DNA from: an uncultured Bacilli bacterium
Lineage (GTDB): Bacteria; Bacillota_I; Bacilli_A; RF39; UBA660
Length of the DNA: 64,000 nucleotides
Reading direction: 5' to 3'
Assembly (NCBI GenBank): GCA_947626595.1
Contig: CANQST010000002.1
Span: forward strand, 9,885-73,884
The notes below the pieces were generated by a model. It made no database searches and was not told the origin of the DNA. It saw only the letters and a program-made list of their open reading frames with translations. A program made the translations under genes and the position numbers. Below are positions 4,697-54,034 of the stretch, in pieces (the first letter of the stretch is position 1; each line of letters starts with the position of its first letter).

Positions 4697-4716
4697 AAAA
4701 ATGATAGGTGATTGAA

Positions 4717-11424: not shown

Positions 11425-12243
11425 ATGAAATTTTTATCAATATTTATTTTATCATTAATTCAAGGAATTGCTGAATTTTTACCTATTTCTTCTTCAGCAC
11501 ATTTAATTATTTTTAGAGACCTTTTTGGTATTGGAAAAGGAATGAGTGCCAATATGGAACTTACTTTTGATATAGCACTTCATTTAGGAACTTTACTAGC
11601 AATAGGAGTATTTTTCTTCAAGGACTTTATTAATATGATTGCGAAGGGATTTACTAAGGGAGTTAAGGATAAAGATGGAAAAATTCTTTGGTATTTAGTT
11701 GCGGCTACTATTCCAGCGGCAATAGTAGGAGTATTATTTGAAGACCCTATTGAAAATATTGTTAGAAAGAATTACTTAGTTATTGCTTTAGCACTTCTTA
11801 TTATGGGTGTTATTATCTATTTAGCTGATAAGTATGGTAAAAATAAGAAAGAAATAAAAGATATTTCTTTAAAGGATGCTATTTTAATAGGATGTAGTCA
11901 AGTGTTTGCTTTAATACCTGGATTTTCTAGGAGTGGTACAACTATTGCGACAGGAAGAATTCTTGGTATTGAAAGAGAAAACGCGGCAAAATTTTCTTTC
12001 TATTTAAGTGCTCCTGTTGTTTGTGGGGCAGTTATTTTAAAACTTCTTGATAAAGAAACATGGGCTATTATATTAGGGGCACCTTTTACTTTCTTACTTG
12101 GTATTTTCTTATCATTTGTAGTTGGATTAATTTGTATTAAGTGTTTATTAAAATACTTAGATAATCATAACTTTAAGATATTTATGATATATCGTGTAAT
12201 ACTTGCCTTAGTTGTAATTGGTTATCTATTAATAGGAGCTTAG
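11425..12243 (+). CDS. uppP: undecaprenyl-diphosphate phosphatase
   Basis: LPISSSAHLII and SRSGTTI motifs of BacA/UppP. 272-aa polytopic protein. Confidence 0.8.
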   Translation: MKFLSIFILSLIQGIAEFLPISSSAHLIIFRDLFGIGKGMSANMELTFDIALHLGTLLAIGVFFFKDFINMIAKGFTKGVKDKDGKILWYLVAATIPAAIVGVLFEDPIENIVRKNYLVIALALLIMGVIIYLADKYGKNKKEIKDISLKDAILIGCSQVFALIPGFSRSGTTIATGRILGIERENAAKFSFYLSAPVVCGAVILKLLDKETWAIILGAPFTFLLGIFLSFVVGLICIKCLLKYLDNHNFKIFMIYRVILALVVIGYLLIGA

Positions 12244-22931: not shown

Positions 22932-25559
22932 GTGGGAAATTTGAAAAGACTAAATTTAATTTTACCGATGGTTATAATTGGGATAATTTTTTCTATGAGT
23001 ATTGGATTTTCCGCATTAAATAAGGGTTTGAGCATATCTGGAGAAGTAAATTATAGACCAGAAAATGACATTAGAATTACAAAAATCACTCCAGAAAAAG
23101 TGGAAAATACGACGTTAGAATACTTCGATTTTTCTAAAAAAGAGGTAAAATTGGCCTTTAAAAAAAATTTAAATTTATGTGTAAAGTTTACACTCGAAAT
23201 CACTAATTTTAGCAATTCTGAGATGGGAATTTTAAAAATTAAGGGGTTAGATGGGGGTGTAATTGATGGTTATACCCTTGGTGAAAAGTTAGTTGGAGAG
23301 GATGGAAATAGTAAAGCTGGGATGATTAAGAAATTTAGTATTACTTATAATTCTAGTGAAGAAGATGTTAAAAGTTTACTATTAAAGTTTGATTTTGAGC
23401 CTGTATATAAGATTAATTATGAAGGGTTTGATGATACTAGTAGTTTTAAAAAAGAGATATTAAGAAATGATAAGTTAGTTCAAAACTTTGGAGATAATCC
23501 TCCTAAGAAAGTAGAAGTTACTATGAATGATGAAGTAATAACACCTAATTATAGTAATGGAGTACTTACAATAGATAATGTAACTGGTGATATAAAGATA
23601 AAGCCTGTGTTCTATGATGAAAGTGGAGCAAATGAACCAGTACTTAGTGATAACATGATACCAGTATATTATGATGAGAATAATAAAGTATGGAAGAAAG
23701 CTGATAAATATAATAGAAATAATAATTGGTGTGATTATAATAATCAAAAGTGGTGTAATGCAGTTACGGTAAAGAATGTTGTAAGAGATTTATCAGGAAA
23801 TGGTAATGATGGAGAAATACATGGAGCAGTTATAGAAAATGGTGAGGCATATTTTGATGGTAAAGATGATTATATAGATACAGGTATAAAAGGCCATGAA
23901 TTCAATCAAATTACTTACATAGCTAAGTTTACTTTGCTTTCATATCAAAATATAAATCAAAGTATTATAGCAAATACTGATGGTAGTGGGAGTGCAATTT
24001 ATATTCCTGGGAAAAATAATAAACTTTTTTTTACATTATATGATGGTAGTAAAAATGGTTATAATTACATTTATGGTGATACTATAATTGAGTTAAATAA
24101 AGAATATTTAGTAGTTGCGGTGTATGATGGTAAAAATATGAAAATATTTATTGATGGAGAGCAAGTTGCAGAAGGTGCAGGCCCAGTCAACTTTAAGCAA
24201 TCTCTTTCTAAAACACTATTAGGAGGTGATCCATTAGGTGAGTCTGATGCTATTGGCGAGCCTTCAAATATTAAAATAAATGATGTATTAATATTTGATA
24301 AAGCATTAACTTTAGAAGAAATAAAAACTCATTATAGTAATAAAGTTACTTTAGGAGAAACTAAACCATTGATTTATTATGATTTTGAAGAGACAAATAG
24401 AGAAATATATAGAAATGGTAATATCGGTACAACAATACCAATGGAAGAAATAAATACCATGTGGGTATGGATTCCAAGATATTCATATACAATAAAACAA
24501 CCATATGGTAAAGCAAGCGCTGATAATCAAAGCCCCTCACAAGAATTACCTGGAGAAATAGACGTTAAGTTTATTCCAGCAAGTCAAAATGATAGTGAAG
24601 GATTGGCACAATATACAGGTAGTGATACAAGTGGATGGTTTACCCCACCTGGATTTAAATTTGGAGATAAAGATTTATCAGGAATATGGATAGGAAAGTT
24701 TGAAACCGGTTATTTGGGTGCAAGTACAGAAAATGAAGCCCAACATGATACACAAGAGTCAAATAAGGTTATTATTAAGCCAGATGTGATAAGTTGGCTT
24801 GGAATAAGAGTTTCAACAATAGAATTGGTTTCTATGGGAATTATAAAAGAAAAAAATCCTTTTGGATTTAATCAAAGCATATATGATAGTCATGCAATAA
24901 AAAATAGTGAATGGGCTTTGATGTCATATTTAACTCAAAGTAGATATGGAAAATATGGAAATACTTTATATGTGGGAGATAACAAACAAACTTACATGAA
25001 TAATTATATTGGAAATCTCTGTGGATGTTCAGCTGGGATACCACATACTAATGAGGCTTCGTTATGTGCTTATAGATATAATGATTTAACAAATATTAGT
25101 TCTGGAGCTGGGTATGTTGGAGCAGGAGCGTCAACAACGGGCAATATTTATGGGATTTACGATGTCAATGGCGGATCTTTAGAAAGTGTAATGGGTGTTT
25201 ATGATAATCCTGAAAGAAGAAGTGGTTATTCAACATCAGATAATTCGGGTTATACAGGATTACTAGACGATGGTAAAATATTTGAAGGTAGAGAATGGCA
25301 AGATGATAAATACTATGATTTTTATAGCACAGATAATTGGATGACTGCATGTGATGGAAACCCATGTAAAGGTCATGCTTTGAATGAAACGAATGCATGG
25401 TACAATAATCCAGTGAATATATTATGGGGTAGATATCCATGGAATTGGAGAAGCGGTTATTGGAAGGATAAAAATGGTGGAGTTTTCATGCATAATAATT
25501 GGGATGGCAGTGCTAATGCTGAAGCTTCATTTCGCATCGTCTTAACTCCAAATAATTAA
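22932..25559 (+). CDS. surface paralog-family protein with inserted LamG/ConA-like lectin domain and C-terminal FGE/C-type-lectin-fold-like domain (N-type III, C-type A)
   Basis: LSGNGNDGEIHGAV...YFDGKDDYID...VVAVYDGKNMKIFIDGEQV...INDVLIFDKALTLEEI is a Laminin_G_3 pattern. The C-domain has the MWVWIPRYSYTIK ... FRIVLTPNN blocks. Start is GTG 22932 or TTG 22941, the latter following RBS AGGTGG. Confidence 0.8.
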   Translation: MGNLKRLNLILPMVIIGIIFSMSIGFSALNKGLSISGEVNYRPENDIRITKITPEKVENTTLEYFDFSKKEVKLAFKKNLNLCVKFTLEITNFSNSEMGILKIKGLDGGVIDGYTLGEKLVGEDGNSKAGMIKKFSITYNSSEEDVKSLLLKFDFEPVYKINYEGFDDTSSFKKEILRNDKLVQNFGDNPPKKVEVTMNDEVITPNYSNGVLTIDNVTGDIKIKPVFYDESGANEPVLSDNMIPVYYDENNKVWKKADKYNRNNNWCDYNNQKWCNAVTVKNVVRDLSGNGNDGEIHGAVIENGEAYFDGKDDYIDTGIKGHEFNQITYIAKFTLLSYQNINQSIIANTDGSGSAIYIPGKNNKLFFTLYDGSKNGYNYIYGDTIIELNKEYLVVAVYDGKNMKIFIDGEQVAEGAGPVNFKQSLSKTLLGGDPLGESDAIGEPSNIKINDVLIFDKALTLEEIKTHYSNKVTLGETKPLIYYDFEETNREIYRNGNIGTTIPMEEINTMWVWIPRYSYTIKQPYGKASADNQSPSQELPGEIDVKFIPASQNDSEGLAQYTGSDTSGWFTPPGFKFGDKDLSGIWIGKFETGYLGASTENEAQHDTQESNKVIIKPDVISWLGIRVSTIELVSMGIIKEKNPFGFNQSIYDSHAIKNSEWALMSYLTQSRYGKYGNTLYVGDNKQTYMNNYIGNLCGCSAGIPHTNEASLCAYRYNDLTNISSGAGYVGAGASTTGNIYGIYDVNGGSLESVMGVYDNPERRSGYSTSDNSGYTGLLDDGKIFEGREWQDDKYYDFYSTDNWMTACDGNPCKGHALNETNAWYNNPVNILWGRYPWNWRSGYWKDKNGGVFMHNNWDGSANAEASFRIVLTPNN

Positions 25560-25627
25560 TTATTTAAACAATTAAGATGGTATTAATAAAATTTATATGT
25601 AAATAATAATTGTAGGTGAAGTGTATT

Positions 25628-28228
25628 ATGAATAGTAGAAAAACTAAATTAATTATAATAGTTGCCTTGTGTTTGGTAGTAATATGTTTAACAGTGGGTT
25701 ATGCAATTCTTTCTGCTAACCTTAATATAAGTGGTCAGGCCTCAGTTAATGGTGGTAGATGGGATGTTGTGTTCTTAAAGAATGATGCTAAAGTAGTAGG
25801 AGAAGGTAGAGCTAAGTGTAACCTTGGTACTATAGAAAATTCTTCTATTAAGGATTTAACTGTTTCTTTAGAAGAAGCAGGTGATAGTTGTACTTTTACT
25901 ATTCCAATACAAAATACGGGTACTGTAGAAGCTTATTTAACAGATGTTGTTGGTAAAGATAATTCTTTAACTTTTAATTCTACATCAGTATCAGATATAG
26001 AAAAAATAAAACCTTTAGTTACATATGAAGTAAAGTATGGAGATATGCAGATAAATAGTCAAACAGATTTTAGTAAGATACCAGTATTAAAAGCAGATGC
26101 TAAGGAGACAGTAACATTAAAAGCTATGATAAATGCAGATGATAGTATTGGAAAAACTAATCCTATAACTATAGGAGGATTTGATAGAACTTTTGTGTTT
26201 AATTCTAATTCATTAGAAGAAGGTTCAACAGATAGTGTAGTACCATTAGGAAGTCCAAATAAGCCAGTATTAAATGGAGATATGATACCAGTATATTATG
26301 AGAAAACAAGTGATACAACAGGAAATTGGGTTAAAGCTGATACAACGAATAGTGATAATAACTGGTATGATTATGATAGTCAAAAGTGGGCTAATGCTGT
26401 AACAGTAAAGAATACTGTAAAAGATTTGTCAGGTAACAATAATGATGGAGTAGTTCATGGAGCAGTAGTAGGAAATGGTGAAGCTAGTTTTGATGGAGAA
26501 GACGATTATATAGATGTTGGGTTAGCTGGTCATGATTTTAGGCAAATTACGTATGTGGTGAAATTTACTTTACATCATTATATTTCCGATCATCATCAGA
26601 TTATTATTGGTAATACTGAAAATGCTGGCGCTTCAATTCAGTTGAGTTCAGATGATAACAAAAGGCTTCTATTTATGGTGCTTGATAATAATACAGGCAC
26701 TTATCTCAAAGTTAGCAGCGATGCCAGTTTAATTGATTTAGAAAAAGAGTATATTGTTGTTGGCACTTGTGATGGTGGTTCAATGAAATTATATCTTAAT
26801 GGTACTTTGGTGGCTGAAAATAAAAAATCTATTAATATAAGAAATTCGATTTCTAGAGTATTGATAGGAGCAGATCCTTCTGATAATTTTGGCTTTGATT
26901 CACCATCAAATATTTCAGTAAATGATGGCTTAGTATTTGATAAGTCATTAACAGAAGAAGAAATAAAGCAACACTATAGTAATGAAGTTACTTTAGGAGA
27001 AACAAAGCCATTAGTCTATTACAATTTTGAAGATGCTAATAGAGAATATTATAAAGAAGCAAAAGCTGGAACAACAATATCAATGGATGATATAAACACA
27101 ATGTGGGTATGGATACCAAGATACTCATATACAATTAAACAACCTTATGGTAAAGCAAGTTCTGAGAATGAAAATCCAACTCAAGCTTTACCAGGAGAAA
27201 TAGATGTTAAGTTTATACCATCAACTATAACAGAAACTGGTTCAGCTCAGTATACAGAAGCTAGTCCTAGAAATTGGAGAACGAACGCTGCCTTTGATTT
27301 TGATAATAAAAAGCGAGCAGGAATATGGGTGGCAAAGTTTGAGCCTACAGGTACTTTGGGTTCTGCTTGTGTAAATGATACTTGTGATATAAATACTGTA
27401 ACGATAAAACCAAGTACTGCTTCAATAAGATTTCAAAAGGTAAGTAGTTTCTTCTATATGGCAAGAAGTATGCAAAAAGTTGATAATCCATATGGTTTTA
27501 GTTCTACAAGTGGTGATTTACACATGATTAAAAATGACGAATGGGGAGCAGTAGCTTATCTATCTCAAAGTAAGTATGGAAAATATGGTAATTCAGCTTA
27601 TACTGGAGCTAATAAAGAAATTTATCAAAATAAATCAAGTGATTATATAACTGGAAATAGTAATGGTACACCAAGCATTAGTACAATAAATACACAGTAT
27701 ACATATAATAATCTAACAAATTTAGGAACTGGTGCTGGTCAAGCAGGACCGGGAGCAAGTACAACAGGAACAATATATGGAGTATACGATATGTCGGGTG
27801 GTGCTTATGAATATGTAATGGCAGCAATAGCATATGATAATGATGATTTAGTTCCAATGTCAGGTAATAATAGCACAGGTACTAGTAATTCTGGATTTAA
27901 TGGAAAGTTTAATGATGGTACTGATTATAATGCTGGCATACCTTTTCCGAATATTAAGTATTATACTATGTATAAAACGCAAAATCCAAATTCTAGTGAT
28001 TTTACTAATTCTTTATCAGCGTGTGGTAATAGCGTTTGCTATGGATGTGCTTTGTCAGAAACAAAATCATGGTATGATGATGTTGCCCTTTTTGTATCTA
28101 GTTACTATCCATGGGTTCAGCGTGGTGGTTATTATGGTGATAAACTAGATGCTGGTATATTCGATGCTGGTTATGGTCATGGAGGTTCTTATAATTCTTA
28201 TTCCTGTCGATTAGCGTTAGTATCATAA
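25628..28228 (+). CDS. surface paralog-family protein with LamG-like insert and C-terminal FGE/C-type-lectin-fold-like domain (N-type IV, C-type B)
   Basis: LSGNNNDGVVHGAV...SFDGEDDYIDVG...YIVVGTCDGGSMKLYLNGTLV...VNDGLVFDKSLTEEEI. The C-domain is of type B (KPSTASIRFQKVSSFFYMARSMQKVDNPYGF..., end ...CRLALVS). RBS AGGTGA precedes ATG 25628. Confidence 0.8.
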   Translation: MNSRKTKLIIIVALCLVVICLTVGYAILSANLNISGQASVNGGRWDVVFLKNDAKVVGEGRAKCNLGTIENSSIKDLTVSLEEAGDSCTFTIPIQNTGTVEAYLTDVVGKDNSLTFNSTSVSDIEKIKPLVTYEVKYGDMQINSQTDFSKIPVLKADAKETVTLKAMINADDSIGKTNPITIGGFDRTFVFNSNSLEEGSTDSVVPLGSPNKPVLNGDMIPVYYEKTSDTTGNWVKADTTNSDNNWYDYDSQKWANAVTVKNTVKDLSGNNNDGVVHGAVVGNGEASFDGEDDYIDVGLAGHDFRQITYVVKFTLHHYISDHHQIIIGNTENAGASIQLSSDDNKRLLFMVLDNNTGTYLKVSSDASLIDLEKEYIVVGTCDGGSMKLYLNGTLVAENKKSINIRNSISRVLIGADPSDNFGFDSPSNISVNDGLVFDKSLTEEEIKQHYSNEVTLGETKPLVYYNFEDANREYYKEAKAGTTISMDDINTMWVWIPRYSYTIKQPYGKASSENENPTQALPGEIDVKFIPSTITETGSAQYTEASPRNWRTNAAFDFDNKKRAGIWVAKFEPTGTLGSACVNDTCDINTVTIKPSTASIRFQKVSSFFYMARSMQKVDNPYGFSSTSGDLHMIKNDEWGAVAYLSQSKYGKYGNSAYTGANKEIYQNKSSDYITGNSNGTPSISTINTQYTYNNLTNLGTGAGQAGPGASTTGTIYGVYDMSGGAYEYVMAAIAYDNDDLVPMSGNNSTGTSNSGFNGKFNDGTDYNAGIPFPNIKYYTMYKTQNPNSSDFTNSLSACGNSVCYGCALSETKSWYDDVALFVSSYYPWVQRGGYYGDKLDAGIFDAGYGHGGSYNSYSCRLALVS

Positions 28229-28266: not shown

Positions 28267-30255
28267 ATGAATAATAGAAAACAAAAATATATTATAATTG
28301 GTGCATTATGTTTAGTGGTAACTTTACTATCTATAGGTTATGCTGTTTTGTCAGCTAACTTAAGAATTGATGGAACTGCTAAAGTATCAGGTGAGAAATG
28401 GAGTGTTGAGTTTGTAGAAAAACAAGCTAAAACTATTCCAAAAGGAAAAGCTACTTGTGATATAGGTACAATTCAAAATACTTCAGTAACAAACTTATCA
28501 GCTAAAGTAAAAGTACCAGGAGATAGTTGTACATTTACTATACCAGTAGAAAATACTGGAACTTTAGATGCCAGTTTAGTTGATGTAACTAATAGAGGTT
28601 TATCTTTATCATATGATGGTAATCCTGGTGATATAGATATAATAAGTAGTTATATAACTTACGATGTTAGATATGGTAGTACACAAATAAATAATGAAAC
28701 TAATTTTGAAGAAATTGATATTTTAGAACCAGGAGAAAGAGAGACAATAACTTTAAAAGTAGAGTTTAAAGAAGAAGCTACACAAATATCAAATGCAGTT
28801 GTAACAATAACAGGCTTAGATAGAACATTTAATTTTGAAAATAAGTTAGGTTCAAGTAGTACTAGTCCAACACCAGAAACTGTACCAGTTTACCATGATA
28901 CTAGTGGAGCTAATCAACCTGTTTTGAGTGATAATATGATACCAGTAGTATATGACGAAACAAGAAAAGAATGGGTAAAGCAAGATTTAGATAAAAGTTA
29001 TGATTATTCACAACAAGTATGGGCAAATGCTGTAACTGTAGTTGAAGATGGAACACAAACAAGAAGTTATTATAAGAAAGCAAAGGCTGGAACAGTAATA
29101 TCAATGAATGATATAAATACGATGTGGGTATGGATACCAAGATACTCATATACTATTAAGAGTGAAGATGGTGGAGATAACTACTTCGGAAAGGCAAGTT
29201 CTGATAATCTAAATCCATCACAGGCTCTACCAGGAGAGATAGATGTTAAATTTATTCCAGTAAGTGAAAATGATAGTGAAGGCTCAGCTCAATATACAGA
29301 AGGGGAAGCAAGTGGATGGTTTACGCCACCAGGATTTAAGTTTGGAGAGAAAGATTTATCGGGAGTGTGGATGGGAAAGTTTGAAACGGGTAATATAGGG
29401 GATTGCCAAGCGACAACTGGAGATGTAAATAATGGATGTGATTTAGAAACGTTAGTTCCACAAATTAAGCCAAATTTAACAAGTTTGAGGGGTATAAGAG
29501 TATCAACATTGGAATTAGTTTCTATAGGTTTAACTAAAGGTGGAAATATCTATGGTTTTGATAATACATATGATAGTCATGCTTCCAAAAATACAGAATG
29601 GGCATTAATTAGTTATTTAACTCAAAGTAAATATGGAAAGTATGGAAATTATTTATACAAAGGAGAAAATAAACAAGTGTATATGAATAATTATAGTGAA
29701 TATATGACAGGATGTTCTTCTGGAATACCAACAGCTGAAAGTTCAGATAAATGTACTTACGAGTATGACAATTTAACTTCTAATGGAGAAGGTACCGGCT
29801 ATTTGGGAGCGGGTGCTTCAACAACAGGAACAATATATGGGATATATGATGCAAATGGTGGAAGTTGGGAATATGTAATGTCTGTTTTTGCAAATCCAAG
29901 CAAATATTCTGGAAATACGCTAGAGTTAAATTCTGGATATAAAGGACTATTAACAGATGAAATTGAGTTTAGCGATAATGCTCGTTCTTGGTTAAGTGAT
30001 AAGTATTATGATTTTTATGCATCAGATGATGTAAAGACAGCGTGTAATGATACTTTATGCAAAGGTTATGCATTAAATGAGACGTCTGGATGGTATGGTG
30101 ATAGAAAGAATATGGTTCACAATATTTATCCTTGGATGGATCGTGGTGGATACCAACGAAAAAATGATGGGACATCTGGGGTGTTTGCATATATTAATGG
30201 AGAAGGAAGCTCTTCAAATTACCGTTCTTTCCGTATCGTCCTAACCCCACAATAA
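28267..30255 (+). CDS. surface paralog-family protein (N-type I, C-type A)
   Basis: The first ~300 aa are ~95% identical to the 52049 paralog. The C-domain carries the conserved blocks and ends ...FRIVLTPQ. Confidence 0.8.
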   Translation: MNNRKQKYIIIGALCLVVTLLSIGYAVLSANLRIDGTAKVSGEKWSVEFVEKQAKTIPKGKATCDIGTIQNTSVTNLSAKVKVPGDSCTFTIPVENTGTLDASLVDVTNRGLSLSYDGNPGDIDIISSYITYDVRYGSTQINNETNFEEIDILEPGERETITLKVEFKEEATQISNAVVTITGLDRTFNFENKLGSSSTSPTPETVPVYHDTSGANQPVLSDNMIPVVYDETRKEWVKQDLDKSYDYSQQVWANAVTVVEDGTQTRSYYKKAKAGTVISMNDINTMWVWIPRYSYTIKSEDGGDNYFGKASSDNLNPSQALPGEIDVKFIPVSENDSEGSAQYTEGEASGWFTPPGFKFGEKDLSGVWMGKFETGNIGDCQATTGDVNNGCDLETLVPQIKPNLTSLRGIRVSTLELVSIGLTKGGNIYGFDNTYDSHASKNTEWALISYLTQSKYGKYGNYLYKGENKQVYMNNYSEYMTGCSSGIPTAESSDKCTYEYDNLTSNGEGTGYLGAGASTTGTIYGIYDANGGSWEYVMSVFANPSKYSGNTLELNSGYKGLLTDEIEFSDNARSWLSDKYYDFYASDDVKTACNDTLCKGYALNETSGWYGDRKNMVHNIYPWMDRGGYQRKNDGTSGVFAYINGEGSSSNYRSFRIVLTPQ

Positions 30256-33170: not shown

Positions 33171-33245
33171 AAAATATTTTGAAAACTTCTATCTAGTGAT
33201 AGAGTTTTCTTTTTCAAAAAGTATAAAAAATATCACTTTGTTCTA

Positions 33246-33280
33246 TTGACAAAATAAAAACATTTGTTTTATAATAAAAT
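33246..33280 (+). promoter_or_regulatory. sigma-A-type promoter upstream of the mtaB-like gene
   Basis: TTGACA, 17 bp, then TTATAA(T). Confidence 0.5.
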
Positions 33281-33356
33281 TGTTAGAGAAAATACTTTAA
33301 TAGCTTTAAAAAAAGTCTTATTTTTGGTATAATATGTTTGTTAGGAGCGTGCCTAT

Positions 33357-37132: not shown

Positions 37133-37199
37133 AAAAATTACTATAAATATGGTATTATTTTATTGGTGATGATTAGTGAATTTTAATGAAAAGGAATAT

Positions 37200-38450
37200 A
37201 TGCCTAGGTTAATTGATAAAAACATAGATAGATATTTAGAAGTTTTTGGAGCTGTTTCTGTTGAGGGACCAAAATGGTGTGGTAAGACTTGGGCATCTTT
37301 GAGGCACGCTAAAAGTGTTGCTTATTTGGATGATGAAAGTACTAAACAAAGAGCTTTATTAGATTTGGAATTGATTTTAAATGATCAACAACCAGAACTT
37401 ATTGATGAGTGGCATTTAATTCCGGAAATTTGGGATAGAGTTAGAAGAAAGTGTGATTTAGATAGTAAAAAAGGAAAATATATTTTGACTTGTTCTACGC
37501 AACTTGATGATGAAAGAAGAAAACACATTTATCATTCTGGTGCTGGTAGAATTGGTAAACTTAAAATGTATCCTATGAGTTTGTATGAGTCTGGTGAGTC
37601 TACAGGAGATGCATCTTTGATGGATATGTTTAATGGTAAACAAAAAAATAAAAATGTTAAAATTCCTAGTTTAGAAGAAATAGCTAATTTAATAGTAAGA
37701 GGTGGATGGCCTGATAATATTAAAGTTTCTAAAGATAAAATCAATATAATTCCCAAGAGTTATATTGCCTCAGTCCTTGATAAAGATATTGATGATGGTA
37801 AAAAACGTGATAAAGAAAAAATGAATATGCTTATTAAATCACTCGCACGTAATGAGTCTACCATTGTTAGTAATCAGACGTTATTAACTGATATAGGTAC
37901 TTATAATAATAACGAAGAATTAATAGAAAGCAGAGTAACACTAAGTGATTATTTAGATGTTTTAGATAGACTTCACTTTACTGAAAATCAAAGTGCTTAT
38001 AGTGAGAATTATCGTTCAAGAGAAAGACTTGGCAAAACACCTAAAAGACATTTAATAGACCCATCTTTAGCTTGTGCCGCTTTAAATTTAACTAGTGATA
38101 AATTACTTAGTGATTTGAGAACTTTTGGTTTCTTGTTTGAGTCTTTAGTAGAAAGAGATTTAAGAATTTATATAGAATATTTAGATGGAAATATTTATCA
38201 TTTTAGAGATAATGTAAGTGGATTAGAAGTTGATAGTATACTGGAATTTCCGGGAGGAGATTATGCCGCAGTTGAAATAAAGTTAGGTTTTAACGCTATT
38301 GAAGAAGCTAAGGCTAATTTAGTAAAGTTTGCGAGTAATATGACTAAAAAACCTAAATTTATGTGTATTATTACTGGTAATTTTGATGCTGTAGCAAAAG
38401 ATCCAGATACGGGAATATATATTGTTCCTATAACAGCTTTAAAACCATAG
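37200..38450 (+). CDS. AAA+ ATPase, DUF4143-type (paralog of 7430-8701)
   Basis: GPKWCGKTW Walker A. PMSLYESGESTG and IDPSLA are shared with the other copy. Confidence 0.7.
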   Translation: MPRLIDKNIDRYLEVFGAVSVEGPKWCGKTWASLRHAKSVAYLDDESTKQRALLDLELILNDQQPELIDEWHLIPEIWDRVRRKCDLDSKKGKYILTCSTQLDDERRKHIYHSGAGRIGKLKMYPMSLYESGESTGDASLMDMFNGKQKNKNVKIPSLEEIANLIVRGGWPDNIKVSKDKINIIPKSYIASVLDKDIDDGKKRDKEKMNMLIKSLARNESTIVSNQTLLTDIGTYNNNEELIESRVTLSDYLDVLDRLHFTENQSAYSENYRSRERLGKTPKRHLIDPSLACAALNLTSDKLLSDLRTFGFLFESLVERDLRIYIEYLDGNIYHFRDNVSGLEVDSILEFPGGDYAAVEIKLGFNAIEEAKANLVKFASNMTKKPKFMCIITGNFDAVAKDPDTGIYIVPITALKP

Positions 38451-43273: not shown

Positions 43274-45238
43274 ATGGACGGTCGAAAACAAAAATTAATA
43301 ATTATAGGTGCTTTATGTTTAGTCGTAGTTTGTTTATCAATTGGATATGCAACTTTATCTTCAATGTTAAAGATAGATGGAACAGCTAATGTAGGAGGAG
43401 AGAAATGGAGTGTTGAGTTTGTAGAAAAACAAGTTAAAACTATTCCAAAAGGTAAAGCAACTTGTGAAATAGGAGATATCACTGGTACAGGTATTACTAA
43501 TATGTCTGCAGTATTTCAATTACCAGGTGACTCTTGTACATTTACAATACCAGTAGAAAATACAGGAACATTAGATGCTAGTCTAGTTGATGTAGAAGGA
43601 AAAGCTACACCTTTAAATTTAGTTGGAAGTCAAGAAGATATATCTAAATTAAATAATCAAATAACATATGATGTATCATATGGAGATACTAAAATAGATA
43701 ACCTAACTAGTTTCGATAATATTGACACTCTAGAACCAGGGGAAAGAGAAACAATAACATTAAAAGTAGAATTTAAATTAGAAGCAACTCAGATACCAAG
43801 TGAAGCAGTAACAATAACAGGATTAGATAGAACATTTAACTTCCAAAATAAAGTTGGTTCAAGTAGTGTTAGTCCAACACCTGATACAACTCCAGTGTTC
43901 AATGATACAAGTGGAGCGAATGCTCCAGTATTAAGTGGAGATATGATACCTGTTGTGTATGACGAAACAAAAAAGCAATGGGTAAAACAAGACTTAAATA
44001 AAAGTTATGATTATTCTCAACAAGTATGGGCAAATGCAGTAACTGTAGTTGAAGATGGAATTCAAACAAGAAGTTATTATAAAAAGGCTAAGGCGGGAAC
44101 AGTAATATCAATGAGTGATATAAACACAATGTGGGTATGGATACCAAGGTATAGTTATACTATCCAAGGTACATATGGAAAAGATGGAACAGGTGCTGCT
44201 ACTCCTGGAGAAATAGAAGTTAAGTTTGTTGGAGCAGGTACAACTGATACAGGAAGTGCAACATATACTGAAGGAGAAGCAACAGGATGGAGAACTAGTG
44301 GAGCTTTCAATTTTGGAGGAGAAGATAAAGCTGGTATATGGGTTTCAAAGTTTGAACCAACTGGTTCAGCTCCAGTTTGTACTACTGCAGATTGTGATAT
44401 AAGTAAAGTAACAGTAAAACCAGGTATTGCCTCAATTAGAAGTAAAACGGTAAGTGACTTCTTCTATATGGCAAGAAGTATGCAAAAAGTAAACAATCCA
44501 TATGGGTTCAATTCAATAAGTGCAGACTTGAATATGTTGAAGAATGATGAATGGGGAGCAGTGGCTTATCTATCACAAAGTAAATATGGAAAGTATGGAA
44601 ATAGTAATTATAGTGGGGCAAATAAAGAAGTTTACATGAATAATAATAGTAGTTATATAACTGGAACTAGTAGTGGCTTACCAAGTGCCAGTAGTTCTGC
44701 AGCTGTTGCCTATGCATATGATAATATGAAAGACTTAGGTGATGGAAAAGGATTAGCTGGACCAGGTGCTTCAACAACAGGAACGATATATGGAGCATAT
44801 GACATGAATGGTGGAGCGTGGGAATATGTAATGGGTGTGCTTGAGTATGATAGTCAAACAGAAAGTGCATACCCAGGAAGATTAACTACGTTTTCTTCTG
44901 GATTTAAAGGATTAAGCAATACTGGTGTAGAAATAGGAACAATTGATTTACCTGATTATAAGTATTATAATACTTATAAAAGTGCTAATCCGACATCAAG
45001 TACATGGTCTTCAGCATTAGCAGAAAAGGCATGTGATGGTGAAATATGTTATGGGCATGCTTTATCAGAAACAGCTGGTTGGTACGGGGATTACGCGAAC
45101 TTTGTGCCACGTTCTTCTCCTTGGGTTCTTCGCGGTGGCTACTATACTGATGGCTTGGGTGCTGGAGTGTTCGACGTAGGTAGTGCCTATGGCGGATCAC
45201 ACAACTATGTATCTTGCCGTCTCACTTTAGTCCCATAA
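43274..45238 (+). CDS. surface paralog-family protein (N-type II, C-type B)
   Basis: The N-terminal ~290 aa are ~90% identical to the 50056 paralog. The C-domain is of type B and ends ...CRLTLVP. The last ~170 bp are markedly GC-rich. Confidence 0.8.
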   Translation: MDGRKQKLIIIGALCLVVVCLSIGYATLSSMLKIDGTANVGGEKWSVEFVEKQVKTIPKGKATCEIGDITGTGITNMSAVFQLPGDSCTFTIPVENTGTLDASLVDVEGKATPLNLVGSQEDISKLNNQITYDVSYGDTKIDNLTSFDNIDTLEPGERETITLKVEFKLEATQIPSEAVTITGLDRTFNFQNKVGSSSVSPTPDTTPVFNDTSGANAPVLSGDMIPVVYDETKKQWVKQDLNKSYDYSQQVWANAVTVVEDGIQTRSYYKKAKAGTVISMSDINTMWVWIPRYSYTIQGTYGKDGTGAATPGEIEVKFVGAGTTDTGSATYTEGEATGWRTSGAFNFGGEDKAGIWVSKFEPTGSAPVCTTADCDISKVTVKPGIASIRSKTVSDFFYMARSMQKVNNPYGFNSISADLNMLKNDEWGAVAYLSQSKYGKYGNSNYSGANKEVYMNNNSSYITGTSSGLPSASSSAAVAYAYDNMKDLGDGKGLAGPGASTTGTIYGAYDMNGGAWEYVMGVLEYDSQTESAYPGRLTTFSSGFKGLSNTGVEIGTIDLPDYKYYNTYKSANPTSSTWSSALAEKACDGEICYGHALSETAGWYGDYANFVPRSSPWVLRGGYYTDGLGAGVFDVGSAYGGSHNYVSCRLTLVP

Positions 45239-45242
45239 CAAA

Positions 45243-45280
45243 AAAATAACTTTAGTTTTAATTCACTAGAGTTATTTTTC
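45243..45280. terminator. bidirectional terminator
   Basis: AAAATAACT-N18-AGTTATTTT hairpin followed by T-runs. Confidence 0.5.
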
Positions 45281-47642: not shown

Positions 47643-47673
47643 TACAATTTATATAGAATTGGTGGTTAGAAAT

Positions 47674-49530
47674 ATGAAGGTAAAGAATAGTAAAGGGTTT
47701 GCTGTTTCAACATTATTGTATGGTTTATCAATAATGGGTTTTTTAATTGTCATTTTACTTATGAGTATTGTTTCTTCTAATAGAGTAAATACTAAGAATT
47801 TTGTTAATCAAATAGAGGATGATTTAAATAGATATAGTTTAACTGAGGTTAGTTTTTCTTCTAAAGATAGTGGTGATTTGGCTCAAGAATATTTTGTTCC
47901 TTATGGGCAAGAGGGTTGGTATAAAATAGAATTATGGGGTGCTGGTGGTGGAGGTGCTACTGGTGGTAAGGGCGCTTATACATCTGGTTTGATATATTTG
48001 GATGCTAATACACATTTATATTTCTATATAGGTAAAAAGGGTGGAACATCGGCAGCTGGTGTTAATAATGGTGGTCCAGCTAGTGGTGGCTACTATGGTG
48101 GTGGTGGAGAGACTGATGTAAGGTTGGAATCAGGAAATAGCAATGACGATAGATCCATGAAAACTAGAATAATGGTTGCGGCCGGAGGCGGAGGCGCTAA
48201 GGGTAGTACGAAAGGTGGCAATGGTGGAGATTTGCAAGGTTACAAAGGTGATGGCACGGCTGGTAGTGCAACACAAAATGCTGGCAATCTGCCAACGGTT
48301 TTATCGAGTGGCGGAGGTGGTGGCTTTCGTAATGGAGGTGCAGGTGAAGGTGGCAGTTCTTATATATCGGGTTATGCTGGGGGTAGCTCTTATGTTTTAA
48401 ATCCTCAAAAGGATCAACTTGGTGAATGGGATTGGGATTATAAAGGAGAAGATTTTCAACTTGTTCCTGGTAAATTAACAATTCATTATTTGTATCCGGT
48501 TTATAAAGAGGTAGGAGAGGAAGCTGTTCTTGATAGATATGACCCTCCACAACATGCTTTTAGGTTTGTTAATGGTTTAATGATACCGGGAGTTAATGAT
48601 GGAGATGGTAAAGCTAATATAGAAAGAGTTGATTTAAAAGGCGCAACAGAATTAGCTAAGAAAGATAATATAAAGCTTAGTAGAATTACGAGAATTGTTG
48701 ATTGTGTTGATGGTAATAGTGGAACTTGGAAAGAAATACAAGCTGTTTCTAATGGAGAGAATGTTATTAAAAGTAGTGGTACTGTAACGGGCTCTGGTTT
48801 GGCTAACGGCAATAATCTTAAGGATGGTTTATTAAATACAGAAGCTAGTATTGCTGGTAGTGTGGCTGAGAAATGTATAACAGTAACTTTCTCTACGCCA
48901 CAAGATTTAGACGAGATAGCTGTTTGGCATAAAGTAGGAAATATCGCTAAACATAATTTAGAAGTTTGTGACCAAAGTGGTGGGTGTTACAGTTTGAGTA
49001 ATAGAACGGCAGTTGATAATTCACCAGTTGTAGAGACAAGTAATGGACTTCATTATTCGGCATATCGAGGAAATGAAACGCAAAATATTGCGAATGGTAC
49101 TTATTTAATTATTCCAGTAAGCAATGCTTCAATGGTATTTACAACGGGAAATGCAGCTTTGTCTGACCATGACATGATGCTTAAACTTGCTAAGTATGAA
49201 GCTAATAGATATCAGATGTGGGATATTCAAAATGTAGGTGATAACAAATATACAATAGTTGAAACACAAAATCATTATTCTTTACAAGTTGATACAGTTG
49301 TTGGAAATTCAGAGGGAGATGTAATTAATGCTCGAGCGAGATTAGTTGATAGTGATAGAGAAAGATGGCATATTACACCGACTGGTAATGGAACATATAT
49401 TATATCGTCGTTCTTGGATCCAGAAAATAAATGTTGTAGATTAGCTTATTCAGCTGGTAATATACGAACAGCTATGAATAGTAATACTACTTTAAATACT
49501 AAATTTTATCTTATAAATGTTGATTATTAG
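47674..49530 (+). CDS. secreted multi-domain protein: prepilin-like N-terminus, glycine-rich domain, ricin-B (beta-trefoil) lectin C-terminus
   Basis: MKVKNSKGFAVSTLLYGLSIMGFLIVILL (KGF + hydrophobic helix, no Glu5). Then ~230 aa of GGxGG repeats (GAGGGGATGGKGAY...GGGGGFRNGGAGEGG). The C-terminus has QxW-type repeats (RYQMWDIQ, RERWHI). RBS GGTGG precedes ATG 47674. Confidence 0.6.
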   Translation: MKVKNSKGFAVSTLLYGLSIMGFLIVILLMSIVSSNRVNTKNFVNQIEDDLNRYSLTEVSFSSKDSGDLAQEYFVPYGQEGWYKIELWGAGGGGATGGKGAYTSGLIYLDANTHLYFYIGKKGGTSAAGVNNGGPASGGYYGGGGETDVRLESGNSNDDRSMKTRIMVAAGGGGAKGSTKGGNGGDLQGYKGDGTAGSATQNAGNLPTVLSSGGGGGFRNGGAGEGGSSYISGYAGGSSYVLNPQKDQLGEWDWDYKGEDFQLVPGKLTIHYLYPVYKEVGEEAVLDRYDPPQHAFRFVNGLMIPGVNDGDGKANIERVDLKGATELAKKDNIKLSRITRIVDCVDGNSGTWKEIQAVSNGENVIKSSGTVTGSGLANGNNLKDGLLNTEASIAGSVAEKCITVTFSTPQDLDEIAVWHKVGNIAKHNLEVCDQSGGCYSLSNRTAVDNSPVVETSNGLHYSAYRGNETQNIANGTYLIIPVSNASMVFTTGNAALSDHDMMLKLAKYEANRYQMWDIQNVGDNKYTIVETQNHYSLQVDTVVGNSEGDVINARARLVDSDRERWHITPTGNGTYIISSFLDPENKCCRLAYSAGNIRTAMNSNTTLNTKFYLINVDY

Positions 49531-50055: not shown

Positions 50056-52017
50056 ATGGATAGTAGAAAGCAGAAACTAATTTTAATTGGTGTTTTATGT
50101 TTAGTTGTAGTTTGTTTATCAATTGGATATGCGATGCTATCTTCAATGTTAAGGATAGATGGAACAGCTAATGTTGGAGGAGAAAAGTGGAGTGTTGAGT
50201 TTGTAGAGAAACAGGCAAAGACTATTCCTAAGGGAAAGGCAACTTGTGAAATAGGAAATATCACTGGTACAAGTATTACTAATATGTCAGCAGTATTTCA
50301 ATTACCAGGAGACTCTTGTACATTTACTATACCAGTAGAAAATACTGGAACATTAGATGCCAGTTTAGTTGATGTAGATGGTAAAGCTACACCTTTAAAT
50401 TTAGTTGGTAGTCAAGAAGATATAGCTAAATTAAATAGCCAAATAACATATGATGTTCAATATGGAAATACAAAAATAGATAACTTAACTACTTTTGATA
50501 ATATTGATACTTTAGAACCAGGTGAAAGGGAGACTATAACTTTAAAAGTAGAGTTTAGGGAAGAAGCAACACAAATACCAGCAGCCGCTGTTACAATAGA
50601 AGGATTAGATAGAACATTTAACTTTCAAAATAAAACTAATTCAAGTAGTACTAATCCATCTCCAACTACAACACCAGTTTACCACGATAATAGTGGTGCA
50701 AACAAGCCAATTTTGAGTGAAAATATGATACCTGTAGTTTATGACGAGACAAAAAGAGAGTGGGTAAAGCAAGATTTAGATAAAAGTTATGATTATTCAC
50801 AACAAGTATGGGCAAATGCAGTAACTGTAGTTGAAGAGTATCAAAATAAGACTAGAAATTATTATAAACTAGCAAAACCAGGTACAGTAATACCGATGGA
50901 TGCTATAAACACAATGTGGGTATGGATACCAAGATATAGCTATACTATAAAGAGTGAAGATGGAAATAACTATTATGGCAAAGCAAGTTCTGATAATGAA
51001 AATCCAACCCAAGCTTTACCAGGAGAAATAGATGTTAAGTTTATACCAGTAAGTGAAAATGATACTGAAGGTAGTGCACAATATACAGGAGAAGAAGCAA
51101 GTGGATGGTTTACCCCACCAGGTTTTACTTTTGGAGATAAAGATTTATCAGGAGTTTGGATAGGAAAGTTTGAAACAGGTTCAATTGATGGAACAAGTCC
51201 AGGAGATGTAGAAACTGATAACTTAGTGGCAATAAAACCAAATATAACATCTTGGAGAAATATTAGAGTATCTACATTAGAACTTGTGTCTATGGGATTA
51301 ACTAAAGATGGAAATATTTATGGTTTTGATCAAAATACTTATGATGCACATGCTTCGAAAAATAGTGAATGGGCGTTAATGTCATATTTAACACAAAGTA
51401 AATATGGTAAATATGGCAATTCTTTATATACAGGTGAAAACAAACAAGTATATATGAATAACTATGGTGGATATATGACAGGATGTTCTTCAGGTAAGGC
51501 GACAGCAGGTAATGAAACAACTTGTGAAAATACTTATGATGTAATGGTAAATCGTCAAAATGGTCAAGGATATGCTGGAGCAGGTGCTTCAAGTACTGGA
51601 AATATTTATGGTATATATGATGCTTCAGGAGGAGCATGGGAATATACAATGGGTGTACTAAACAAGATGTCAGGAAATACACAAAGTTGGAATTCAGGTT
51701 ATCCTGGCTTACTTACTGATGGGACTAGTTTTACAGGAAATCGAGAATGGCCAGCTGATAAATATGTAGATGTTTATATGTCAGAAGATACCAAAATTGC
51801 CTGTAAAGGAACTTCATGTAATGGCCATGCTTTAAATGAAACATCAGGATATTATGGTGATTATTATGTTATGGTAGACACTGCAAAAATGTGGCTAGTT
51901 AGAGGAGGCGGTAGCCGTTATAGTAATTCTGGTGTAGGAATCTTCTCATTTGGAAATAATTATGGTAATGCGTATTCTGATAACTCATTTCGTATTGTTT
52001 TAGCACCAAATAATTAA
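50056..52017 (+). CDS. surface paralog-family protein (N-type II, C-type A)
   Basis: RBS AGGTGGAG. The N-terminal half matches 43274. The C-domain has the conserved type-A blocks and ends ...FRIVLAPNN. Confidence 0.8.
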   Translation: MDSRKQKLILIGVLCLVVVCLSIGYAMLSSMLRIDGTANVGGEKWSVEFVEKQAKTIPKGKATCEIGNITGTSITNMSAVFQLPGDSCTFTIPVENTGTLDASLVDVDGKATPLNLVGSQEDIAKLNSQITYDVQYGNTKIDNLTTFDNIDTLEPGERETITLKVEFREEATQIPAAAVTIEGLDRTFNFQNKTNSSSTNPSPTTTPVYHDNSGANKPILSENMIPVVYDETKREWVKQDLDKSYDYSQQVWANAVTVVEEYQNKTRNYYKLAKPGTVIPMDAINTMWVWIPRYSYTIKSEDGNNYYGKASSDNENPTQALPGEIDVKFIPVSENDTEGSAQYTGEEASGWFTPPGFTFGDKDLSGVWIGKFETGSIDGTSPGDVETDNLVAIKPNITSWRNIRVSTLELVSMGLTKDGNIYGFDQNTYDAHASKNSEWALMSYLTQSKYGKYGNSLYTGENKQVYMNNYGGYMTGCSSGKATAGNETTCENTYDVMVNRQNGQGYAGAGASSTGNIYGIYDASGGAWEYTMGVLNKMSGNTQSWNSGYPGLLTDGTSFTGNREWPADKYVDVYMSEDTKIACKGTSCNGHALNETSGYYGDYYVMVDTAKMWLVRGGGSRYSNSGVGIFSFGNNYGNAYSDNSFRIVLAPNN

Positions 52018-52048: not shown

Positions 52049-54034
52049 ATGAATAATAGAAAACAAAAGTTAATAATTATAGGTGCATTATGCTTAGTGG
52101 TAACACTTTTATCAATAGGTTACGCTATTTTGTCATCTAACTTAAGGATTAATGGAACTGCAAAAGTATCAGGAGAAAAATGGAGTGTTGAGTTTGTAGA
52201 AAAACAAGCTAAAACTATTCCAAAAGGAAAAGCTAATTGTGATATAGGTACAATTCAAAATACTTCAGTAACAAACTTATCAGCTAAAGTAAAAGTACCA
52301 GGAGATAGTTGTACATTTACTATACCAGTAGAAAATACTGGAACATTAGATGCAAGTTTAGTTGATGTAACTAATAGAGGTTTATCTTTATCGTATGATG
52401 GTGATCCGGGTGATATAGACATCATAAGTAGTTATATAACTTATGATGTAAGATATGGTAATACAGAAATAAATAATGAAACTTCTTTTGATACTATTGA
52501 TATTCTAGAACCAGGAGAAAGAGAGACAATAACATTAAGAGTTGAGTTTAAAGAAGAAGCAACTCAAATACCAAATGATGTAGTAACAATAACAGGATTA
52601 GATAGGACATTTAACTTTGAAAATAAAGTTGGTTCAAGTAGTGAAACTTCACCTACACCAGAAACTGTACCAGTTTACCACGATACTAGTGGAGCTAATC
52701 AACCTGTTTTAAGTGATAATATGATACCAGTAGTATATGACGAAACAAGAAAAGAATGGGTAAAACAAGACTTAGATAAAAGTTATGATTATAGTAGTCA
52801 AGTTTGGGCCAATGCAGTAACTGTAGTTGAAGACGGAACCCAAACTAGAAGTTATTATAAGAAAGCCAAAGCTGGAACAGTAATATCAATGAGTGATATA
52901 AATACAATGTGGGTATGGATACCAAGATATTCATATACAATAAAACAACCATATGGAAAAGAAAGTTCTGATAATCTAAGTCCTTCGCAAGAATTACCAG
53001 GAGAAATAGATGTTAAGTTTATTCCAGCAAGTGAAAATGATAGTGAAGGTTCAGCTCAATATACTGAGGGAGAGGCAAGTGGATGGTTTACCCCACCAGG
53101 ATTTAAGTTTGGTGACAAAGATTTATCAGGAATATGGATAGGAAAATTTGAAAGCAGTAATATTGAGAACTGTTCTGCTACTAATAATGATGTAGATAAT
53201 GGCTGTGATTTAGAAAATTTAACCGTTCAAATTAAACCTAATGTAACAAGTTGGAGGGGAATAAGAGTATCAACATTAGAATTAGTTTCTATGGGACTAA
53301 CAAAAGATGAAAATATTTATGGCTTTGATAATACATATGATAGTCATGCAATTAAGAATACCGAGTGGGCACTTATGGCATATTTAACTCAAAGTAAATA
53401 TGGTAAGTATGGAAATGTTTTATACACTGGAAATAATAAGCAAGTGTATATGAATAATTATAGTGGCTTTGTAACAGGATGTTCTTCAGGACTTCCAATT
53501 GCTGATACTTCTGATACGTGTACTTATCGCTATGATAATCTGACTAAGCAGGATAATATAGGATATTTAGGTGCAGGCTCTTCCGTGACAGGAAATATTT
53601 ATGGTATATATGATACTAATGGAGGTGCTTGGGAATATGTAATGGGAATATATCAAAATCAAGACGTAAGGTATACGGGATATTCTACCACAAGTAATTC
53701 CGGTTATACTGGGCGTACTGGTATTAATGATGAACAGTTTACTGGAAGAGAGTGGCAGAATGATAAATATTATGATTTTTATTCAACAACAAATGTATTA
53801 ACAGCTTGTATGCTATCAGGAAATGGAAATGCACCTTGCAAGGGACACGCTCTTAATGAATTAGCAGGATGGTATGGAGATTATTCAAGTATGGTTCAGA
53901 AGACTGATCCTACAATAGTACGAAGTGGTAATTATAATTATGGTAGTAATGCAGGTAGTTTTAATTTTAATCACTCACGTAGTTACGCAATTTGGGATGT
54001 TTCATTTCGTCAAGTTTTAACTCCCAATAATTGA
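52049..54034 (+). CDS. surface paralog-family protein (N-type I, C-type A)
   Basis: RBS AAGGAGG. The N-terminal half matches 28267. The MWVWIPRYSYTIKQPYGK segment is ~90% identical to 22932. Ends ...FRQVLTPNN. Confidence 0.8.
   Translation: MNNRKQKLIIIGALCLVVTLLSIGYAILSSNLRINGTAKVSGEKWSVEFVEKQAKTIPKGKANCDIGTIQNTSVTNLSAKVKVPGDSCTFTIPVENTGTLDASLVDVTNRGLSLSYDGDPGDIDIISSYITYDVRYGNTEINNETSFDTIDILEPGERETITLRVEFKEEATQIPNDVVTITGLDRTFNFENKVGSSSETSPTPETVPVYHDTSGANQPVLSDNMIPVVYDETRKEWVKQDLDKSYDYSSQVWANAVTVVEDGTQTRSYYKKAKAGTVISMSDINTMWVWIPRYSYTIKQPYGKESSDNLSPSQELPGEIDVKFIPASENDSEGSAQYTEGEASGWFTPPGFKFGDKDLSGIWIGKFESSNIENCSATNNDVDNGCDLENLTVQIKPNVTSWRGIRVSTLELVSMGLTKDENIYGFDNTYDSHAIKNTEWALMAYLTQSKYGKYGNVLYTGNNKQVYMNNYSGFVTGCSSGLPIADTSDTCTYRYDNLTKQDNIGYLGAGSSVTGNIYGIYDTNGGAWEYVMGIYQNQDVRYTGYSTTSNSGYTGRTGINDEQFTGREWQNDKYYDFYSTTNVLTACMLSGNGNAPCKGHALNELAGWYGDYSSMVQKTDPTIVRSGNYNYGSNAGSFNFNHSRSYAIWDVSFRQVLTPNN

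Follow-up and report, generated by a model that had tools for sequence, protein, structure and literature searches.

The GC-rich 3' end of a gene encoding a secreted or surface protein of gut Bacilli is very probably, by descent, the variable region (VR) of a diversity-generating retroelement (DGR). The gene, called here the 43274 gene after its first position, lies in a stretch of 64,000 nt of contig CANQST010000002.1 from an uncultured Bacilli bacterium. This whole stretch is referred to as the window, and the gene is one of seven paralogs in it, each named after its first position. A DGR works from a template repeat (TR), non-coding and GC-rich, whose transcript is reverse-transcribed by a complex of reverse transcriptase (RT) and Avd with misincorporation opposite adenines. 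The resulting cDNA then replaces the final 100-160 nt of the target gene. We lean towards reading the tail of the 43274 gene more narrowly, as an orphan VR in which amelioration has begun, and hold this second claim with distinctly less assurance than the first.

Composition and extent of the tail

A preliminary description of this DNA, made from the sequence alone, had reported a GC spike at the 3' end of the 43274 gene, and our measurements confirmed it. When GC content was computed in stretches of 169 nt, the mean for the window was 28.9% (standard deviation 5.4%) against 50.9% for positions 45070-45238, about 4 standard deviations higher. That level was matched at one other site of the window, in a Gly-rich gene at about 48.0-48.4 kb. 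Maximal-segment analysis narrowed the tract to the tail given in Table 1, which was the second strongest GC-rich segment of the window and whose 3' end coincided with the last codon of the gene, one codon before the stop. The GC content at third codon positions (GC3) was 20/48 (0.42) in the last 48 codons, as against 88/606 (0.15) in the remainder of the gene (Fisher p=1.4e-5), and the GC excess of the tail is one of codon choice. Total GC of the last 120 nt was 0.52, where VRs in relatives have 0.49-0.64, and the adenine content of the tail was 18%, where VRs have 9-19%. The encoded tip was devoid of K, E, Q, M and W, residues that are not encodable by NNY codons (P=0.0075).

Fold of the encoded protein

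The 43274 protein comprises an N-terminal signal/transmembrane helix, a TasA/camelysin-like beta domain and a C-terminal domain of the C-type-lectin (CLec) fold. It was modelled by AlphaFold (AF2) with 66 homologues (pLDDT 85, pTM 0.78), and Foldseek with this model returned TaqVP (5vf4) as the top match (E=4e-9, probability 1.0). Lower matches included Mtd (1yu3, rank 7) and, for the N-terminal part, TasA (8aur). The model shows 45072-45234 to encode the predicted ligand-binding tip of the CLec domain of a secreted TasA-like protein. At the level of sequence profiles, hmmscan of five proteins at E<=0.1 gave no match to CLec or to FGE-sulfatase (formylglycine-generating enzyme; PF03781), the Pfam matches on paralogs being a weak DUF11-like one at the N-terminus and a Laminin_G_3 insert in two long paralogs. 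The FGE-sulfatase Pfam domain was found in none of the best 120 of 3207 homologues, and a profile search of PDB sequences with the 43274 protein gave no match. The likeness of the domain to FGE-sulfatase is thus confined to fold and motif spacing. Where a target of C-type-lectin/FGE fold had been proposed earlier, the CLec fold was upheld by the TaqVP and Mtd matches, whereas the FGE part was without a Pfam counterpart.

The N-termini of all paralogs (43274-43400 in the 43274 gene) have the look of SipW/TasA-type signal peptides (...LSIGYAxLSxxLxIxGTAxV), which suggests secreted, possibly fibre-forming proteins that bear the lectin tip. A precomputed Pfam match to PF12389 is on record for the homologue P0110.

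DGR cassette of the closest homologue

Among the best 120 of 3207 homologues, the closest one outside the window's own strain was P0002 (76% aa identity), encoded on contig L002 (ENA ERZ27249386 NODE_1001). Past a non-coding gap downstream of the P0002 gene come a MutS_I-bAvd gene and then an RVT_1 RT, in which the DGR-type motif IGNYTSQ occurs together with YMDD; TR, MutS_I-bAvd gene and RT all lie within 2.4 kb. When the last 106 nt of the P0002 gene (11856-11961) were compared with the repeat at 12124-12229, 16 mismatches were seen, 16/16 at adenines of the TR. As read from the two repeats, this is a textbook VR/TR pair. GC content was 66% in the VR and 53% in the TR, against 27% in the contig. 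P0002 and its NCBI cluster-mate P0122 were identical at 644/654 residues. All ten differences between them fell in the VR, and reading of the TR placed 10/10 at codons with adenine in position 1 or 2, on which account the L002 element is, judged by its sequence, active.

The accessory gene of the cassette (L002 12606-13319) encodes a 237-aa fusion of MutS_I, which is mismatch-binding, with bAvd. In a related cassette, on L205, MutS_I and bAvd are separate neighbouring open reading frames (ORFs), 275-691 and 719-1129. The joining of MutS_I to Avd may be relevant to the handling of the mismatched cDNA/VR heteroduplex.

The target family in related gut Bacilli

We used the L002 RT to scan one genome per species and obtained 80 loci, nearly all from metagenome-assembled genomes (MAGs) of uncultured gut Bacilli, 'Tenericutes' or Clostridia, the hosts being rabbit, chicken (Ca. 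Onthousia), mouse and human. About 40 of these loci encode a homologue of the 43274 protein, mostly directly upstream of the RT, and the protein family is thereby shown to be a recurrent DGR target in this uncultured gut Bacilli lineage. The scan for repeat pairs covered 82 loci (the 80 with L001 and L002) and gave clean ungapped VR/TR pairs in 22/82, with mismatches nearly all at adenines. In these 22 loci the VRs had 50-66% GC and the TRs 43-53%, against 25-34% for the loci themselves, and tails of family members adjoining RTs had a GC content of 0.49-0.64. As VRs and RT-adjoining tails are this rich in GC within loci so poor in it, the normal VR signature in this lineage is a spike of GC across the final 100-160 nt, with which the 43274 tail (GC 0.52, 163 nt) agrees. 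One related MAG had two DGR loci, L123 and L124, and in L128 the VR and the TR were 11.5 kb apart.

In L194, from a mouse-gut MAG, the 3' end of the target together with the TR occurs in two identical copies about 3.8 kb apart (4808-4941/5129-5262 and 8596-8729/8917-9050), which could reflect either tandem duplication of the target with its TR or faulty assembly.

Comparison of the tail with related template repeats

Related DGRs have a long type of TR, with which the 43274 tail could be aligned codon by codon (Table 1). We compared the tail, YANFVPRSSPWVLRGGYYTDGLGAGVFDVGSAYGGSHNYVSCRL, with the TR of L123 from a sister rabbit MAG, YANFVNRSNPWFKRGGNYNNTTNAGVFNVNNNNGNSNSNNSCRL. The amino acid was changed at 19/23 codons with a TR adenine in position 1/2, as against 4/24 of the rest (Fisher p=7e-6). 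Non-adenine sites had 31 DNA mismatches, 23/31 of them at third codon positions. Since the changes cluster at adenine codons and the non-adenine mismatches are mostly at third positions, the tail looks like the product of a TR related to that of L123, diverged at synonymous sites.

Alignment in register with the L002 TR was also obtained (Table 1), and the 35 mismatches at non-adenine TR positions found there showed that this TR is not cognate to the tail. The nearest VR or TR among the 80 RT loci differed from it at 44/105 bases. P0125, the closest RT among those of non-representative NCBI genomes, led to a partial TR on L205 (positions 1-57, ending SSRAVFAP), which was not cognate to the 43274 tail.

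Search for a DGR acting on the 43274 copy

It had been stated earlier that the window is without RT, avd and template repeat, and this was borne out: tblastn with 121 RTs found no RT or Avd in the window, and a repeat search with the seven tips found no TR-like copy of any of them there. The 4.2 kb past the 3' end of the window contained no RT, Avd or cognate TR, and L002, the 80 RT loci and L205 contained no TR cognate to the 43274 tail. A TR pattern in IUPAC code ('VR base or A') was anchored on GGAGTGTTCG and TGCCGTCTC; its unanchored form matched only poly-A runs in viral contigs. The anchored pattern retrieved neither a TR nor the VR itself from genome, metagenome (JGI) and viral (IMG/VR) contig collections, the source genome being outside these collections. 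The exact 36-mer just upstream of the VR had 0 matches in JGI metagenomes.

L001 is the only other assembly of the window's strain, and the tail DNA was identical in the two. Runs ERR10663786 and ERR10663788 also hold the strain. P0001 and P0121 differed at one residue, located outside the tail, and the comparison of P0002 with P0122 served as positive control, with 10/10 differences in the VR. The ParC protein of the window was found unchanged in sample ERZ27249386 with L002 (coverage 7.8x vs 9.2x), and L002 and the window strain are probably parts of one organism. Sliding-window comparison of the 43274 gene with the L002 paralog revealed a segment of complete DNA identity (Table 1), as against 46-51% identity in the tail. 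The identical segment is consistent with recent gene conversion between the two paralogs.

Another contig of that sample, L204 (ERZ27249386 NODE_271), is syntenic with the window and stops 100 bp past parC, where the 43274 paralog would start. This end is probably an assembly break due to the segment that is 100% identical to the P0002 gene.

The seven paralogs and their tips

The seven paralogs (4708-6723, 22932-25559, 25616-28228, 28267-30255, 43274-45238, 50056-52017 and 52049-54034) have kept a GHALNETxGWYGD block and a terminal [FC]R..L..P. The preliminary description was correct about these blocks flanking the tips and about the tip peptides that it quoted. The tips, which it had called hypervariable, are indeed the least conserved stretch of the protein, with a mean pairwise identity of 0.29-0.31 against 0.54 for residues 200-654, but this holds in a relative sense only, other stretches going down to 0.33-0.40. 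Its view of the tips as unrelated and mutually non-homologous in DNA was too strong. All seven align in register on the scaffold W617, R620, G621, G631, F633, G640, R649 and L652 (pattern W..RG(G)...G.F...G...[FC]R..L), and the tips of 25616 and 43274 have 61% DNA identity. We considered these two tips as VRs of one TR and rejected the idea, as 67/170 bases differ; GC3 of 0.14 vs 0.41 implies that many third positions differ, so that one TR could not have given both. The deduction that the seven tips cannot have one TR in common was right. As to the NNY-type residue set ascribed to the tips, it held for 43274 and also for 50056, which is without K, E, Q, M and W (P=0.003), but not for 22932, 4708 and 28267, in which these residues are common.

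In the paralogs 22932-25559 and 25616-28228, the N-terminal and CLec domains are separated by some 210 inserted residues that form a Laminin_G_3/ConA-like lectin domain (Pfam E=2e-11). The same architecture is present in the relatives P0033, P0044, P0051 and P0064.

GC3 of the tips as a possible sign of age

The last 40 codons of 17 VRs with a cognate TR at their own locus were taken as reference for GC3 and for adenine at third codon positions (A3). Their GC3 was 0.59 on average (range 0.35-0.72) and their mean A3 was 0.07. The 43274 tail had GC3 0.40 and A3 0.17, and only 1/17 reference VRs had a lower GC3. The tips of 28267 and 22932 came to 0.30, and those of the other four paralogs to 0.10-0.15, which is the genomic background. 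A paralog in the sister MAG with two DGRs, P0035, appears analogous to 43274, a parallel case drawn by comparison. It lies among housekeeping genes, has a tail with GC3 0.31 for which the L123 TR is not cognate, and shows no difference between two contigs from different samples. P0035 is encoded by a Lapin rabbit-gut MAG and occurs in two assemblies of the accession series ERZ272493xx, and the MAG of the window probably stems from that same study of the rabbit gut.

We suggest, tentatively and with more doubt than conviction, that the seven paralogs form a dated series of frozen DGR products, in which tips uncoupled from a TR keep the chosen specificity while GC3 decays to the genomic 0.14. 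A DGR would repeatedly diversify the lectin tip, and the gene would then be duplicated or recombined away from the TR. If this is true, DGRs build a stable paralog repertoire and not only transient variation, and the decay of GC3 is a clock for the uncoupling of each copy.

Origin of the tail

Rewriting by a DGR would account for the foreign GC and the C/T-ending codons of the 43274 tail, for the sharp end of the tract at the stop codon, and for the NNY-type residues and the changes at AAY codons of related TRs. With less certainty, the 43274 copy has more likely than not lost its coupling to a TR, once duplication or recombination had placed it in the parC-ylbD locus. The tail would then be a frozen VR, now under ordinary mutation and the youngest in a graded fossil series of the seven paralogs, and the strain's own DGR would be working on the other paralog, P0002/P0122. 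We read the copy as recently orphaned because the window has no RT, Avd or TR, because the L002 TR does not match, and because its GC3 lies between that of active VRs and the background. Of the DGR reading offered in the preliminary description, kinship to true DGR VRs stood, through the P0002 cassette, the RT-linked relatives and the TaqVP/Mtd fold, whereas no sign was found of a DGR acting on the 43274 copy now.

Several observations weigh against the tail being orphaned, and the same observations favour a different account, in which 45092-45234 has its cognate TR, long and L123-like, in a second DGR elsewhere in the genome that acts in trans and keeps rewriting the tail. We consider this account possible but rather unlikely. 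Total GC of the tail is within the range of active VRs and its boundaries are sharp; the tip has an NNY-only residue set; relatives can have two DGRs per genome, as with L123 and L124; and a VR can lie as far from its TR as in L128. The searches reached the window, some 4 kb on its 3' side and related loci, and a cognate TR may lie elsewhere in the genome. That L002 and the window strain share a genome was inferred from their co-occurrence. The identity of the tail in two near-identical assemblies is weak evidence of stasis, because only 4 SNPs (single-nucleotide polymorphisms) in 18.9 kb distinguish the window from L001 (99.98% identical). Continued rewriting is opposed by the failure to find a cognate TR in the window, L002, the 80 RT loci and L205, by GC3 and A3 nearer to the background than in 16/17 active VRs, and by the constancy of the tail between the two assemblies where the P0002 VR varies.

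The sequence just downstream bears on the same question from both sides. Most of 20 true VRs have a short hairpin within about 10 nt 3', its loop often being GTAA or GAA. The short GC-containing hairpin of most true VRs is missing after the 43274 tail, and an AT-rich terminator-like hairpin sits in its place, which argues against a live VR, whereas the true VR of L190 is likewise followed by a long AT-rich hairpin. On account of L190, the downstream hairpin was not taken as a decisive discriminator of live VRs. The hairpin after the 43274 gene begins 4 nt past the stop, between convergent genes, and is probably a bidirectional terminator.

It is improbable, in our estimate, that the tail was imported by gene conversion from the VR-bearing 3' end of a DGR target of another strain or paralog and was never diversified at this locus. 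The 43274 gene is a mosaic, 100% identical to the L002 paralog at 44129-44310 and 46-51% identical in the tail, which indicates that paralogs exchange segments. Against such an import, no donor with a closely similar tail was present in the best 120 of 3207 homologues, and the nearest VR or TR is the one differing at 44/105 bases. Moreover, import would be a route to orphan status and not a true alternative, since what was imported would itself have been made by a DGR. Very improbable is an origin without any DGR, by duplication, positive selection and drift on the lectin binding face with the GC spike as a chance or selected codon effect, for although 5/7 tips are at or near background GC3, several contain K/E/Q/M/W and other parts of the protein are nearly as variable as the tip, it is countered by the GC3 excess (p=1.4e-5), by a composition and length that match real VRs of the same family, by P0002, the nearest homologue and a proven DGR target, and by the placing of the differences from the L123 TR at adenine-templated codons.

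Comparison with known systems

What was already known includes the biology of DGRs, their CLec and remote targets, and untargeted paralogs. The best structural match, TaqVP (Thermus aquaticus DGR variable protein, PDB 5VF4), resembles the 43274 protein in its CLec fold with C-terminal variable residues. However, sequence identity is 16-17%, the 43274 protein has in addition the TasA/camelysin-like domain and the signal/transmembrane helix, and TaqVP lies in a DGR cassette whereas the 43274 copy does not. Mtd of Bordetella phage BPP-1 (PDB 1YU3), the prototype DGR target, likewise has a CLec fold with its VR at the extreme 3' end, and it shares adenine-specific diversification, which in the present family is shown for the L002 homologue. 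Mtd is a tail-fibre protein of a phage and has TR and RT next to it, whereas the 43274 gene is chromosomal and the search for its cognate TR was negative. The L002 cassette and its relatives L123-L125, from rabbit-gut Bacilli MAGs, have the family, the tail architecture and the GC-rich tail in common with 43274; the L002 cassette differs in that TR, MutS_I-bAvd and RT are present and the VR varies between assemblies.

Single cyanobacterial genomes can house multiple scattered CLec paralogs of a DGR target, whose VR/TR homology is graded (Vallota-Eastman et al. 2020, BMC Genomics, PMC7517822). Some of these are still targeted ('remote VPs') and others are untargeted ('VP homologs'), and intragenomic duplication was inferred (PMC7517822). 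The 43274 set is similar in having multiple dispersed CLec paralogs per genome. It differs in that the cyanobacterial proteins have kinase or caspase domains, in place of which the gut Bacilli have a secreted TasA-like N-terminus, and in that within a window of 29% GC the VR state shows as a GC/GC3 spike, fading in older copies. The DGR target family with a TasA-like N-terminus and a CLec tip is previously unannotated and is widespread in gut Bacilli of rabbits, chickens, mice and humans. In an AT-rich genome, a DGR-type VR is recognisable from the target gene alone, by a sharp GC/GC3 spike in the last 100-160 nt of a CLec-fold ORF. The graded GC3 of paralog tips offers a simple way to separate live from orphaned targets, and makes it testable whether lasting sets of surface-lectin paralogs originate from DGRs.

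Features and neighbouring genes

Table 1. Positions in the window of the 43274 gene, of the segments of it discussed in the text, and of the tips of its six paralogs
Feature	Positions	Strand	Basis or remark
Gene for 654-aa secreted/surface protein	43274-45238	+	ORF; AF2 model; Foldseek
Segment 100% DNA-identical to the DGR-target paralog on L002	44129-44310	+	Sliding-window identity, 90-nt windows
GC-rich VR-like tail	45072-45234	+	Maximal-segment analysis: 163 nt, 53% GC
Stretch in codon-by-codon alignment with the long type of TR in related DGRs (YANFVPRSSPWVLRGG...SCRLTLVP)	45092-45235	+	e.g. L123 TR 9181-9322
Stretch positionally equivalent to the L002 VR	45129-45234	+	In register with L002 TR: 55/106 bases identical
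AT-rich hairpin	45242-45279	.	RNAfold of 80 nt downstream; 15-bp stem, 8-nt loop
4708 paralog tip	6577-6720	+	GC3 0.15, background
22932 paralog tip	25413-25556	+	GC3 mildly raised, 0.30; has K/E/M/W residues
25616 paralog tip (...RGGYYGDKLDAGIFDAGYGHGGSYNSYSCRLALVS)	28082-28225	+	Tail type as in 43274, fully AT-ameliorated, GC3 0.12
28267 paralog tip	30109-30252	+	GC3 mildly raised, 0.30
50056 paralog tip	51871-52014	+	GC3 0.15, background; NNY-like residues
52049 paralog tip	53888-54031	+	GC3 0.10, background

The neighbourhood of the 43274 gene is of housekeeping type, with parE/parC upstream and ylbD/ylbE downstream. An AAA_14/DUF4143 ATPase gene (37176-38450) lies between recD2 and parE, and a second AAA_14/DUF4143 gene is located just past the 3' end of the window (L206 804-2081), so that the gene may be one that is repeated or mobile. 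Scanning the window against Rfam and for tRNAs gave nothing relevant. An intergenic stretch of 76 nt (33211-33286), upstream of a MiaB-like gene, was 89% identical to L002 21575-21649 at the end of that contig, and neither the Rfam nor the tRNA scan explained it. The strongest GC-rich segment of the window, 48039-48389, lies inside the gene 47659-49530 (623 aa), whose product combines a glycine-rich domain of ALK/LTK type (Pfam E=3e-25) with a ricin-B-like lectin at the C-terminus. Its GC content is due to Gly codons, unlike that of a VR-type tail.

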